DNA of 64,000 nucleotides from Escherichia coli O157:H7 (GTDB taxonomy: Bacteria; Pseudomonadota; Gammaproteobacteria; Enterobacterales; Enterobacteriaceae). Position numbers: made by a program. The stretch lies in assembly GCF_013167455.1 (NCBI RefSeq), contig NZ_CP038328.1; one strand, 5' to 3'. Below are positions 27,001-33,000 of this stretch, piece by piece (position 1 is the stretch's first letter; each line of letters begins with the position of its first letter).

Positions 27001-30000
27001 TTCACCGTCGGCGGGTAAGGCAAAACAAACTCTATACGCATCAGTAACCTCTTTTACCCGAGCACGCCGGTTGCAAAAGCGTGATCAAGAAAACGAAAAA
27101 TTAAATCAACCTGGGAACCATGCTTTTCTTCGAACGCCAGCGGATCCGCATGAAGCTCGTTGTGATGCTCCCGACACAGCGGTAGCGTGAAAATATCGTG
27201 GGATTTTGTTCCCATTCCACCCTGACCATGACCAATCAGATGATGAGGATCGTCCGCTGGCTTACCACAACACGCACACGGCTGTGTCTTTACCCAGCGT
27301 GTGTATTTCTCATTTACCCAGCGGCGACGTTTAGGTCGTTTCATGAAGGATTTCGGAGACTCCGGATCAACGGCAATGCTGACCACCGTCTTTTCCTGTG
27401 GTGGGTTCTGTTGCTGGTGGGTGTGAGGCGGTAGCGCAATATTTTTTGTGCGCTGCTTCAGTATGCTGGTGGCGGTCTGTTCTCCCGGTATGATGTCGCT
27501 TTCACGGTATACGGAGCGGATTTTTTCCGCCGGTAATCCCAGAGAACGACGCGATACTGCCTCAGGTAATGCGTCCACCACCTGATTGCAGACTGCCCAC
27601 CAGGATAATTCAGCCAGCGATAATTCCCGTTCCTGTATGCCATTCATTGCGTGGCGGATGACGTCAATCATCCAGGCGGCCAGATTCTGTTGAGCAAGTT
27701 GCTCAAGTGATTCGGATGTCTGGTCGCGCAGCTGGTTGTCGCAGTGCCAGCACAACACCATCGCGCCGGTACCGTAACGATGTATGACAGTTTCGCTGTG
27801 ATGATAATCACCATGAGGCCACTGGCAGGATTTCACGTGACGTAATAACCAGTCAGACAGTGCACCAGCGCCACCCGCAGCACGGATCACCCGCTCATCG
27901 CTGAAAAATGGCAGTAGTGATTTATCTTCCGCCAGCGGCTGGTGAACGGCAGGTACAACCCCGGACGGCAGAGCTCGCATGCTTTTTGGTTCCGGCTCCA
28001 CCAGTATTCTGCCGTTATGGAATGCTGACATTGATTCACGGCCTGGCTTAACGATAACCAGACCGAGTTCCGGTACCAGAACAGGTCGAAGTAATACCCG
28101 CACATTACCTCCAGATCCGTTGCTGGAATGTGCGGGACGGACGCGGTGGCCGTTCGGAGTAAGGGAGCCTGACGGAGATTATCCAGTGACGGTAGTCGAG
28201 GCTAAGGGCTTTTTTAACCTCGCATCCGCGCCTGCGGTAACACTGAATGAGCCATTCGGCCTGTTCTTCAGTGCATGGGGGATGCTGGTACCAGTCAGAT
28301 TTGAATGCGTGAAAACACCGTCCGCGCCTGCTGGCAAAGACGGCAGAATCATCAGAATTGTATAATTTGGTATCGTGCGCCATCGGTTGTCTCTGCTGGC
28401 GCAGCAGGTGCCAGTTGTTCAGGCTGGCGTGCGAATTGTAAACCAGAATGCCAGGAAAAAACAAAACCCGCCGAAGCGGGTTAAGTGCGGGTGCGTTGAG
28501 GATGCCTGATTCATCAGAGGTGGCGAGGGATTTCTCCCCCGCCAGGTCTCTTACTCCTCAGGTTCGTAAGCTGTGAAGACAGCGACCTCCGTCTGGCCGG
28601 TTCGGACTCGTACCTCGCAGAGGTCTTTCCTCGTTACCAGTGCCGTCACTATGACGGTTAAACAGATGACGATCAGGGCGATTAACATCGCCTTTTGCTG
28701 CTTCATAGCCTGCTTCTCCTTGCCTTTCGGCACGTAAGAGGCTAACCTAGATTTGCCGTTCATAGATTGAGCCTCAGATTAATGTTAGGCGTCTTGCAGG
28801 ACGCGTAATGTTAACTGGGGCTTTTCTCTATCTGCCGTTGGTGTTCATGCCCGAGGCAGATAGCCTCAAGCACCCGCAGCTATTCTACTTAACTTCCCAT
28901 TACCTCGCCAATATGAAATCGGTCAGAAAGACAGACGTCCCATAAGGACAACAACGGAAAAAGAGATTTTGCTTGATGCTATTTACCTCTGCACCATGAA
29001 GTTGCGCCAAAATCCCAGTGGTGATAACAGGAATTTGGTTGTTGGTGATTGGGGAAAGAAGTACGTTAGACTGTGGGTTAGTTCATTGACATGATAGTTA
29101 CCTGCCTTCAATTTCCTAAGCAAGCGATGTAAACGATAATCAATATCAAATGTATTGACAGGTAAAATAATAACGATGTACCTTTGCTGATAACATATAT
29201 CAGTCTTAAATCATAATGGAGGTAGATAAAATAACTAAACACACACAACAAATTTTTTATCAGTGACATAGCATATCTTAAGCATCCTTTAATGCTCATG
29301 GGGAGAACGCATGACTAAACATATGGACATTCATTGTCAAACACGCATATTTAACTCAATTAACCATGACACCAAATATAAAATATGTATTTTTACTCCA
29401 AAAAACATTAAAAAAAATAATGCAACTCTTTATATACTTGATGGGAATAGTGCCAACAATTACATTTCTGATATTCTGCCTGTTATTGATGCACTACCCA
29501 ATCCACCAGTGTTAGTTACACTTGGTTATGAATCTTGGAATAACCTTAGCATTCATCGCCGTGCTTACGATTATACTCCTGATGGTGAAAATGCTATTGT
29601 TGATAACTCTAAACCAGCATGGATCTACTTTACTGGTGGAGGAAGCCAGTCTTTCCGAGAATTATTACTAACTCAGATCATGCCATGGGTTAGTACTATT
29701 GCTCCGAACAGTTCCAGAATCGGTATATGGGGACACTCGCTAGGTGCTATTTTTGTGCTTGATTGCTTAAAAAATAATTCATGCTTTAACTATTATTATA
29801 TATCTGCACCATCACTTCTATGGCAGAATGAAAGAATCATCAAGATAATTAAAGATGATATATCAGAATCAAAGCACACTAAAAGTATATGCTTGCTTAA
29901 CGGAAATCTTAGCCTTGATTACTCCGCATCTTTATATCCTGAAGCCATCAAAGCGGAATCTGTTTTGAGAAATATTTTGACAGAAAAATACAGTAATTTT

Positions 30001-33000
30001 TCTATTGTACAATTTCCAGAGCTCAATCATCAGGAGACTTTCTCTGCTGCACTCTGGAATAGCATTATTCATTTCAGCATATAACAGAAAATATGTAATC
30101 ACTTTATCAATCTAGCTAACATAACTGATATCAATCCTAATGGGTCTTTGAACATATTAAAAGATAACTTCTCATTTGTACATTGTTGTGTTCTTAGACC
30201 CATTTCAAAAATACTATTTTTTAGATACTAATAATTACATCCATTTAGCTATCTTCTAAATACTCCTCTCAGTTTCTTCATTGGAGCTGATTCAACTCCG
30301 GCAATGCATACTAGGATCATTTTATAAGCATACAAACAACATCCAGACTGTGAATTATTGCTATTCATTTTCTATGTATCTGCTCTTTTCCCATCCACTG
30401 AAACACCAGAATCCAAAGGTTTCATGTTATTTTCACTATTCCATCATTACTCCTGTGTAAAATATCAAAACTCGCTGCATCACTTCACTGTTACGGCACT
30501 CACTACAAATTATGTTCAATTGCCTGTCATAGCGGCGTATTTCTCCGTCTGGTAATGACCAGATAAGGTCAGGATCAACCACAACCGGTTTCTTCAGTTT
30601 TGCCCTCGATAGTTTTTTGCGGGCGTTTTGCCAGTCCTTACGAGCCTGTTCAGATGGGAATAACCCGTAACCAGAGTTGTATACATCGCCACTGGCAACC
30701 AGCTCTCTGGCAAGAACGCTCATCAGATATCTTGTCGCACCTGTCTTGGCTTCCAGTTGCCGTAACGTCTCGCGCCCACTCCGGCGTACTAGCTCAACAA
30801 CCTGCCCTTTAATTTTTTCCCGCTCTTCCTGTGTAAATACTTTTGCCATAAGCGCCTCCGGCAATCACTTTTCCGATACAACACGGCGGGAAGAATCAGT
30901 AATCTGTCGAACAATATCCCGGTGCTTGTTCAGCTCCCGCAGCGCGGCGCAGACTCGCTCCCACTTCTGAACATCACTTTTCGCCCTGCGCAGCGCCAGG
31001 TTTGCCCTGCGAAGGGACGGAAAAATCAGCTCATCTGCTTGCGTTTCGGTAAACGATGGCAACGGCTGCACAATGTCCGCCACAGTTTCTGTTTTAATTT
31101 CTTCCTGTGTTGCGGCTTCCCGGACTGGTAACGCAGCACCTGCTGGCTGAGGAAAGGCCTTACCATCACTTTCCGTTACCAGCGCGGCTTTCGGCTCTGC
31201 TGGTAAATTATCGCCCGGCATGCAGTAACGAAATTTACCGTTCTGATTAACGCGTGCCAGCCGCCCCGTTGCGGTTACCACCGCCAGCGTGGAAGCAACC
31301 TTGCGAGTACTGACACCGAACTTACCCGCCAGTTCCTCACACGTTTTAGCCCCATCCTGACCGATAAACTCAATCATCATGTCTGCGGTAACTTTTTGTT
31401 CGACCTCCCCGGTCAGCATATCCTGTGCTTCAGATTTTACTGGCCGCTCTTCGGTTACCCGGGATTCACCTTCGCCAGCCAGAAACCAGGTGTGACCAGT
31501 TTTATCAACGACGCCATTTATTTTGAGTTCCCACAGCTCGTTGACAGCCTCTTCACGACTGATTCCAAGGCGAGCTGCCACCACATGTGAAGAGGCTTTT
31601 TTCAGTGCTTTCAGTGCGTCAGATACGGTTTCCATTAAAATTTCCTCCGGACAAAATTACTTCACAACCCTCATATTGCTGACATTTGGACGCCAGCTAT
31701 CCCAGTTAAACGTCACCCATCGACCACCGTTCATGGTCATGCGGTCCATAATCCTCTCACCAAGAAGTGTACTCATTGCGGCATGATTCAGGTTTGTTAA
31801 CATCCCGACACTGCACAGTGATGCTGTCCGGCGATCAATTATCTGGTGTAATACCACCTGCTCGTTTTTCGTCTCCCGCTGAACGCCTATTTCATCCAGG
31901 ACCAGCAAATCAACACTGCAAAGCTCCTGTAAAAATTTTTCCCCGGATTTGCCGTTGTCGTAGCTGTCATGCAACACGCTCATGACATCAGACACGGTGA
32001 CGATAATCACGCTGCGCCCCTTCGCCATCAGCCGGTTACCCATCGCCGCTGCAAGGTGATTTTTCCCGGTGCCGGTTTTACCGCTGAACACAAAATTCGT
32101 GCACCCGGTCATCAGTTCGTCAGCTATGGATTTGGCCTGGCTCAGCGCGTATTTTTGCCCGTCGTTCTGCACCTGATAATTCGCAAACGAGCATTTGCTG
32201 TGCAGAGGCTGGATGCCCGAACGATTCAGGATTTTTTCCACCCGCAACTGGTGATTCTGGCGGTTAATCTCCTCGCTGCGTTTTCGTCCTTCAGCAAGTT
32301 GCCATTCCCGCCACTCCTCCACCGTCCGGTACGGTGGAACCGACGCCTGTGGTGCAAGTCTGCGAATACGTTCAAGAACCCCGGCTGCCGCAATGTTTTT
32401 CATGCCACATCACCCCCTGAATCCCGGCGGAATTTCGGTATCCGGTTCAGAAATATGATTCACACAACGCTGGTTGTTCGTGCCGCTTACCGGGAGCAAC
32501 CAGGGGTTTTCAAAATTCCGGTCCGGCCCAAAAAACGTCGTCGCTCGCTGAACAAATTCCGTTCCCGCTTTCCCGGTCGCCGCCAGGTATCTCGCGTAAC
32601 GCCTCACACCATCCAGCATGGTCTCTGGTGGCACCCCCTCGCGCAATCTGGCCTTCCAGGCACTGAAAGCGGATTTCTTCGGGTTTGCCCCAGCACGCAA
32701 CGGGTATTCCCGCCAGACCTGTTCGAACACATCCGGATAATCCACTCGTCCCACAGACTGCCCGGTGCTTTCCGGGACTACCCGATCGGCTTCCCGCTGA
32801 ATGGCGGAATCGGCTTCAGGCTGCTGCAGTTGGTGTGATTGCTCCGACCCTGCGGTCATCACCTGCTGCACAGCGCCCGAATCGGCTTCCGGTGTCGTGC
32901 CTGCTGGCTGACCAGGATTGACGGTCTGAACATCCCCTGCCTGGTTCGTGGTGTTTTTTTTGCCATGAACCATAGTGTTTTTGTCCTGTTCCTGTTCTTT

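Follow-up and report, generated by a model that had tools for sequence, protein, structure and literature searches.

The prophage Sp4 of Escherichia coli O157:H7 carries, between a hok/sok toxin locus and a gene for a DUF977 protein, a solitary hydrolase gene, ECs_1077, which encodes a complete IroE-type catalytic domain without an export signal and forms an antisense, AT-rich module that is kept by selection at one site in several lambdoid prophages. The gene was analyzed within a 64,000-nucleotide stretch of contig NZ_CP038328.1 (RefSeq assembly GCF_013167455.1), here called the window, whose bases 1 to about 42300 correspond to Sp4, as judged from the coordinates of the Sakai genome, and the remainder to the chromosome. 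We consider it somewhat better than an even bet that ECs_1077 is an esterase for catecholate siderophores which the lysogen expresses in its cytoplasm, possibly under the control of Fur. The gene and its key positions are as follows:

29311-30084, plus strand: coding sequence of ECs_1077 / WP_000160654.1, 257 amino acids, a leaderless IroE-family serine esterase
29440-29442, 29560-29562, 29737-29739 and 30028-30030, plus strand: codons of D44, R84, S143 (in GHSLG) and H240, respectively
29300-29305, plus strand: Shine-Dalgarno sequence GGGGAG, 5 nt ahead of the ECs_1077 ATG and the same in diverged alleles (upstream alignment)

A 1.6-kb query spanning the island matched E. coli O157:H7 Sakai, EDL933, and numerous further complete genomes at 100% identity. 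In Sakai its counterpart lies in Sp4 and the open reading frame (ORF) is annotated as a "hypothetical protein", while the RefSeq annotation of EDL933 calls it WP_000160654.1, an "alpha/beta hydrolase". The first-pass annotation of the window, made from the sequence alone, had described an ORF at 29311-30084 with a GHSLGA motif on the strand opposite to its neighbors, and this holds: the protein contains IWGHSLGAIF, the neighboring hokD/mok, DUF977, DUF1627, and replication genes are all annotated on the minus strand, and ECs_1077 runs antisense to the phage early-right operon. An AT-rich block at 28800-30435, between hok and the replication genes, had also been proposed. Its placement is correct, with hokD/sok on the left and the DUF977, DUF1627, and replication genes on the right, and so is its low guanine-plus-cytosine (GC) content, which is 31-38% over about 28950-30450 against 51-55% in both flanks; the 34% of the island is the minimum among all 1.5-kb segments of the 64 kb (mean 50.6%, standard deviation 5%). 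The left edge, however, has to be moved, since 28800-28950 is still part of the hok/sok locus, as the Rfam match of sok indicates, and the low-GC block thus measures about 1.5 kb. The ATG of ECs_1077 is the first start codon after in-frame stops, which lie 6 and 13 codons upstream and therefore make a longer reading frame impossible.

Comparisons of sequence and of structure both lead to the siderophore esterases. In a phmmer search against PDB sequences, IroE (2gzr) was the best match, with an E value of 5e-26 over residues 8-253 of ECs_1077, followed by BES, PfeE, EstA, and an IroE-like protein from Shewanella, and the catecholate trilactone esterases (IroE, BES, and PfeE) ranked above the fungal fusarinine esterases. 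The AlphaFold2 model, built with 107 family sequences, had a predicted local distance difference test score (pLDDT) of 91.5 and a predicted template modeling score (pTM) of 0.91. With this model, the top 30 Foldseek matches in PDB were all siderophore esterases, namely IroE, EstA/EstB, BES, PfeE, and the Shewanella IroE-like protein (E values from 1e-19 to 1e-14, template modeling (TM) scores of 0.72-0.79), and IroE (2gzs) led them with an E value of 1.7e-19 and TM scores of 0.77-0.79. The alpha/beta hydrolase of esterase-family layout recognized in the first-pass annotation is therefore borne out by the fold and the PDB matches, and can be narrowed to the IroE-like siderophore esterases. Generic libraries (Pfam, NCBIfam, PADLOC, and PHROGs) say little about the protein, which explains its vague public name, "alpha/beta hydrolase": no family among the defense-system models of PADLOC-DB matched the hydrolase at E values up to 1, and in PHROGs it matched only its own family 8493, whose function is not annotated.

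The active site points in the same direction. Alignments of 15 and 107 members show little or no variation at D44 (in LDGN), R84 and D87 (in RAYDYTP), S143 (in GHSLG), and H240; in the larger alignment, D44 and R84 never vary, and at least 90% of the sequences have S143 and H240. The spacing of 99 residues from D44 to S143, and of 59 from R84 to S143, equals that of D90, R130, and S189 in IroE. D90 and R130 of IroE are said to have been found catalytically important by Larsen et al. in 2006. The dyad that makes up the catalytic machinery of IroE, Ser189 and His287 (PMC10515146), is matched in the alignment by S143 and H240. No conserved triad acid aligns, the position of a Glu found in many relatives being occupied by N196, and the lack of a conserved third acid is as expected of a dyad enzyme. 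Of the catalytic Ser, Asp, and His for which alignment had been suggested, the Ser and His can thus be aligned with Ser189 and His287, and the triad cannot, IroE having a Ser-His dyad and no conserved triad acid aligning in ECs_1077. ECs_1077 combines the sequence and structure features of the IroE-like family, i.e., a single-domain fold, a GxSxG serine with a near-C-terminal histidine, and the Asp of LDGN with the Arg of RxYDYTP. Nor is it the degraded fragment of a larger gene that the first-pass annotation had considered: the catalytic domain is whole, the fold is confident, and purifying selection acts on the gene, which is free of indels in three allele groups (see below). The evidence from alignment and modeling narrows the probable substrate class to that of the IroE-like siderophore esterase family.

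ECs_1077 differs from most of its relatives at the N terminus. Most of the 104 relatives compared carry a leader of about 40-46 residues: the N terminus is longer by at least 30 residues in 89 of them and includes a hydrophobic segment in 85; the alignment offset between ECs_1077 and IroE is 46 residues. The maximum 12-residue Kyte-Doolittle mean at the N terminus is 0.17 for ECs_1077 and at least 1.8 for 85 of the 104 relatives. This value and the upstream stops agree with the earlier observation that a signal peptide is lacking, and the protein is presumably cytoplasmic. The remnant of a lost signal peptide was sought upstream and rejected, as nothing above noise was obtained when the N termini of the relatives were compared with 28800-29400 by tblastn, and as there are in-frame stops close by. 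A leaderless member with the IroE fold has a precedent, because BesA is a leaderless cytoplasmic enzyme of IroE-like fold that frees iron from trilactone siderophores. PfeE and Cee, on the other hand, hydrolyze enterobactin in the periplasm, releasing iron (PMC8001512).

Signals that may govern the expression of ECs_1077 were found on both sides of the gene:

29190-29217, plus strand: candidate sigma-70 promoter (ATAACA, 16 nt, CATAAT), 9 of 12 consensus matches, in a block conserved between alleles
29129-29147, plus strand: Fur-box-like site GTAAACGATAATCAATATC, matching 15 of 19 positions of GATAATGATAATCATTATC
29188-29202, plus strand: weaker Fur-like 7-1-7 palindrome TGATAACATATATCA, 11 of 14 positions, overlapping the candidate -35 element and wholly conserved in variant alleles
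30139-30204, no strand assigned: imperfect long hairpin followed by a T-run, with 16-nt arms that are 88% complementary (z -2.99)

The candidate promoter is the best promoter-like site on the strand of ECs_1077. The Fur-box-like site at 29129-29147 had a P value of 0.004 when the 253-bp upstream region was shuffled and 0.03 when the island was; in the variant allele one core base is changed, CGATAAT to CGAGAAT, which leaves 14 of 19 matches by hand count. These sites hint at iron control of ECs_1077 through Fur. The downstream hairpin is a plausible terminator between the convergent transcripts of the hydrolase gene and the early-right operon. A perfect match to the Fur core, TGATAATAATTATCA at 16501-16515 (16496-16518), was also considered as an iron signal and rejected, because a lambda-type cos sequence, cgaggtcgccgcc, is found some 40 bp away, at about 16450-16465 in the rearranged late region of Sp4; we take this palindrome to resemble a conserved one near the right end of lambda and not an iron-regulated promoter. 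A possible lead on expression comes from a microarray study with Z1341, an unknown gene of prophage CP-933M that was upregulated 2.5-fold in enterohemorrhagic E. coli grown with epithelial cells, in a set that also included exbB, chuU, chuA/S/T, and enterobactin transport genes (PMC2654852). Z1341 may be ECs_1077, a tentative mapping drawn only from Z1344, a RusA-type endonuclease (PMC2907692), lying three annotated genes away. As to translation, rare codons are many in ECs_1077, with AUA used for 9 of 31 Ile and AGA for 3 of 7 Arg residues, and with only 1 of 24 Leu codons being CTG. A prophage tRNA cluster at 23727-23976 (minus strand) has the anticodons CAU (annotated ileZ), UCG, and UCU and decodes AUA and AGA; these tRNAs of the prophage itself may help translate the AUA/AGA-rich gene.

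The relatives of ECs_1077 are either very close or distant. Both in 5.8 billion proteins searched with a word index and in 1.84 billion representatives searched exhaustively, only E. coli sequences were found at 76-100% identity, after which identity drops to about 31-33%; judging from these searches, ECs_1077 is an isolated, E. coli-only, low-GC lineage. The nearest relative outside E. coli with usable genomic context (P0020) is encoded beside 2,3-dihydroxybenzoate biosynthesis genes, two TonB-dependent receptors, and a Fec-type ABC transporter, and another (P0023) stands alone, outside siderophore clusters. The island occurs in about 470 of 5,426 complete E. coli genomes; 457 of the carriers, including O157:H7, O26:H11, and O145, have it at 99% identity or higher, and 13 have a diverged allele. 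Neither near nor distant DNA searches found the island in the INPHARED phage collection, where four protein matches of distant iroE type (about 29%) were obtained, at least three of them on bacterial-looking contigs of 230-690 kb. A literature search under ECs1077, the neighboring ECs tags, and the protein accessions found no paper.

If ECs_1077 is indeed a siderophore esterase, a lysogen would make it from its own promoter and the protein would remain in the cytoplasm, where Ser143, activated by His240, would attack an ester bond of a serine-trilactone catecholate siderophore, either enterobactin or a related foreign one. The siderophore would be linearized or degraded, adding to or modifying Fes-dependent iron release and the host pool of linear dihydroxybenzoylserine products, and expression would be repressed by iron via the two upstream Fur-box-like sites. 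Such linear products play a part in iron uptake and help Salmonella to resist peroxide (PMC7403778). Several points weigh against this interpretation. The search of esterase families with hidden Markov models, which had been recommended in the first-pass annotation, gave only a weak Pfam Esterase match (E value 0.013), the PDB comparison being far clearer, and NCBIfam offered no family for ECs_1077 at E values up to 1. Identity to any characterized esterase is just 20-29%, so the substrate could have shifted. IroE is periplasmic and acts on iron-free siderophores (PMC7403778), a setting that is lost in ECs_1077; ECs_1077 has no linked gene for the transport or biosynthesis of siderophores, and the host already has Fes, which makes the benefit of a second esterase hard to see. 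The Fur-like sites are post hoc matches in AT-rich DNA, where such palindromes are unspecific, and the unspecificity is illustrated by the cos-linked 16501-16515 being the only perfect match to the Fur consensus in the window. Finally, no expression or activity data securely tied to ECs_1077 were found in the literature.

Some of these points can be read as signs that an esterase of the IroE fold has come to act on an ester or lactone other than a siderophore, be it from the host, the phage, or the gut, with iron uninvolved, an explanation that we regard as unlikely. It would fit the identity of about 30% to the nearest relatives and the wide gap around the E. coli-only cluster among the 1.84 billion representatives, the stand-alone position of the gene without iron genes nearby, which is shared with P0023 in being outside a siderophore cluster, and the weak support from Pfam and the lack of any from NCBIfam. 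It is opposed by the finding that every characterized member among the 30 best structural matches hydrolyzes a siderophore, by the retention of all four IroE-type active-site marker residues, and by the higher similarity of IroE, BES, and PfeE than of the fungal fusarinine esterases.

Whether ECs_1077 has any function at all can be judged from its alleles, which were collected from viral contigs and assemblies, and for which flanks were examined in two complete genomes, two assembly contigs, and 10 viral contigs. The alleles form three groups:

Group A: 100% identity to the Sp4 protein; the Sp4 type
Group B: 92% identity to the Sp4 protein; first ~210 nt nearly as in group A and then diverged, a mosaic
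Group C: 89-90% identity to the Sp4 protein; without the antirepressor (ant) gene fragment

The genes of all three groups are 774 bp long with the same start and without indels, and D44, R84, D87, S143, and H240 are retained in each. Pairwise ratios of nonsynonymous to synonymous substitution (dN/dS) are 0.165-0.265, with dS up to 0.31, and the deficit of nonsynonymous changes has a binomial p value of 5e-12. The spacer downstream diverges faster than the coding sequence, with 79.5% identity and 17 gap positions, and ECs_1077 is intact where the insertion sequence (IS) elements IS2 or IS5 struck neighboring genes. The gene thus evolves under purifying selection, which excludes a relic that died long ago. 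Inactivated copies do occur occasionally, as in a viral contig (L029, 4001-4770) with a 1-bp deletion and in one 5.15-Mb chromosome with a frameshifted, 209-residue product (P0017), so some backgrounds can do without the gene. At every locus with flanks examined, the gene order is hok/sok, hydrolase, DUF977, and DUF1627, so that the insertion point between hok and DUF977, whose conservation in related prophages had been proposed as a check, is the same in all of them. The replication modules beyond DUF1627 differ, with a DnaC-like gene in Sp4 and lambda-P and DnaT-like genes in group C. Group B (L023/L024) is nearly identical to Sp4 upstream of the gene and in its positions 1-210 and then diverged, with an overall dS of 0.23, which indicates a recombination breakpoint inside the hydrolase gene relative to the Sp4 allele.

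These results bear on the idea of a silent relic, i.e., a 5'-truncated iroE-like gene that was captured illegitimately from a low-GC donor, is silenced by H-NS, and hitchhikes without function in a defective prophage. Much of the locus would suit it: the leader present in 85-89 of the 104 relatives is missing, the GC content is low (34%) and the rare codons AUA and AGA are frequent, gene debris (the ant fragment and a broken ORF) lies on either side, Sp4 is rearranged and contains IS elements, and the copies L029 and P0017 are frameshifted. We nevertheless consider it quite improbable in view of the dN/dS of 0.17-0.26 at dS up to 0.31 and the lack of indels beside a spacer that is 20% diverged with 17 gap positions, the sameness of the start codon, Shine-Dalgarno sequence, and catalytic residues in the three allele groups, and the survival of the gene where IS elements hit its neighbors. 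Lambdoid prophages of O157:H7 carry many AT-rich type III effector genes. Sec-independent exit by type III secretion or phage lysis, with action outside the cell on competitor siderophores or host molecules, seems very improbable even so, for all that CP-933M has listed effectors (PMC5120812) and that the family usually works outside the cytoplasm, given that the gene lies in the early/nin region and not at the effector loci near the tail-fiber genes, and that no secretion signal has been demonstrated in the sequence.

Returning to the cytoplasmic siderophore esterase, a bolder version of that interpretation can be put forward only tentatively, as one that is perhaps true and rather more probably not: ECs_1077 might be an iron-regulated lysogenic-conversion gene whose IroE-type esterase reshapes the catecholate siderophore metabolism of the host, and hence a phage-transferable trait of O157, O26, and O145. 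Examples of such reshaping would be the use of foreign trilactone siderophores, or the supply of linear enterobactin products against oxidative stress or host sequestration.

The surroundings of the gene consist of the following features:

28551-28763 (whole locus 28551-28875), minus strand: hokD/mok toxin gene with the sok antisense RNA locus, the left neighbor, outside the island
28973-29059, minus strand: 87 bp left over from an antirepressor (ant) gene, bordering the island on the left and marked as a partial pseudogene in RefSeq
30085-30435, minus strand: AT-rich spacer in the form of a broken ORF of about 110 codons, with in-frame stops; broken elsewhere in a variant allele (L004, group C)
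30436-30849, minus strand: gene for a DUF977 / Ren-like exclusion protein, the right neighbor, which accompanies the island in all allele groups

On the left, sok is matched by Rfam at 28701-28875 with 105.6 bits, and an Rfam scan of the island found no non-coding RNA besides this one at its left edge. Just downstream of hokD, at 28461-28542 on the minus strand, there is a subthreshold Rfam match to IsrK, a small RNA of Salmonella prophages (27 bits versus a gathering score of 50, E value 0.0037), and the IsrK-like stretch ends in a strong, terminator-like hairpin at 28465-28482. Homology to other hok-bearing phages stops at about 28924-28951; in phage HannyBb it returns at 30458, the gap being occupied by 1.37 kb of unrelated genes. 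No flanking terminal repeats of transposon type were found around the island. The ant remnant, which has 76-82% identity to ant genes of Shiga toxin (Stx) phages and other lambdoid phages and is present in groups A and B and missing from C, is a scar from an earlier arrangement of this site. PHROGs, a tblastn search of phage genomes, and the 5.8 billion proteins yielded no homolog of the broken ORF at 30085-30435, which is possibly a decayed former gene that may once have stood behind the Ren-like gene. A divergent 63-residue hydrophobic ORF at 29108-29299 (minus strand) was considered as a partner gene and rejected, because a frameshift interrupts it in the variant alleles after about 31 codons. 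The remark in the first-pass annotation that no partner gene is evident has therefore stood up, neither this ORF nor that at 30085-30435 being conserved intact.

Elsewhere in Sp4, the second low-GC stretch of the window, at 24700-26500 (37-40%), holds a gene for a CPBP/CAAX-type intramembrane protease (25339-26163, minus strand) adjoining an AraC-family regulator gene, and these two look like further accessory cargo. Genes for a ParE-type toxin and a small PaaA2-like antitoxin lie at about 34700-36500 (Sakai ECs_1067/ECs_1068), beside the prophage repressor, and the pair is also found in the variant prophage (L004, 5940-6412); counting hok/sok, the prophage has two addiction modules.

Few bacterial genomes have been studied as much as those of Sakai and EDL933, but ECs_1077 is labeled there as just "hypothetical" or "alpha/beta hydrolase", and its placement among the siderophore esterases gives this neglected gene of a major pathogen a sharper annotation that can be tested cheaply. 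If the enzyme does act on siderophores, the processing of iron siderophores would join the traits moved by lambdoid prophages among Shiga toxin-producing E. coli lineages; if it does not, ECs_1077 is an ordinary accessory hydrolase in a defective prophage. In either case the family, the fold, and the chemistry were already known, so the conceptual gain is modest; what is unusual is the lambdoid-prophage carrier and the isolated low-GC lineage.

Among known systems, IroE, the enterobactin/salmochelin esterase from the iroA locus of E. coli CFT073 (2GZR/2GZS), is the best match in both sequence and structure, and shares with ECs_1077 a single domain without a lid, the dyad, and the D/R pair. ECs_1077 is, however, only 26-29% identical to IroE, which is below the level of orthologs, is without the first roughly 46 residues that form the leader or anchor of IroE, and has a GC content of 34% and N196 in place of the Glu of IroE and many relatives. 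Moreover, it stands alone in a prophage, among hokD/sok, DUF977, DUF1627, and replication genes, and not in the iroBCDEN salmochelin cluster. BesA (BES), the bacillibactin/enterobactin esterase of Bacillus (2QM0), has the IroE-like fold (Foldseek E value 2.8e-18, TM 0.79) and the GHSLG elbow and is similar in that ECs_1077 is leaderless, but identity is about 20% and the phmmer match is partial (residues 20-189, E value 9e-13). BesA is also part of a chromosomal iron-uptake regulon in a Gram-positive bacterium and not of a phage. The ferric-enterobactin esterases PfeE of Pseudomonas aeruginosa and Cee of Campylobacter share the fold and the catalytic serine motif, whereas both are periplasmic, are encoded beside genes for outer-membrane receptors, and have 21-23% identity to ECs_1077. 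The cytoplasmic enterobactin/salmochelin esterases Fes and IroD release iron from imported catecholates, which is the role proposed for ECs_1077, but they have an N-terminal lid domain and a Ser-His-Glu triad (PMC10515146). With the lid they comprise about 380-400 residues, in contrast to the 257 of ECs_1077, which has no extra domain, and they gave no phmmer match and Foldseek matches on the C-terminal domain of Fes only (target-normalized TM 0.46-0.48). With the morons of lambdoid phages, which are lysogenic-conversion genes lodged between conserved phage modules, ECs_1077 shares an orientation opposite to the operon, a strongly deviant GC content, and a constant position that is occupied by different cargo in other phages, i.e., the 1.37-kb unrelated block in HannyBb and ant in Stx phages, while the promoter and terminator of its own that a moron would have are represented by a 9-of-12 consensus match and a predicted hairpin only. 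In its proposed role, ECs_1077 would most resemble BesA or Fes, and in its ancestry it most resembles IroE.

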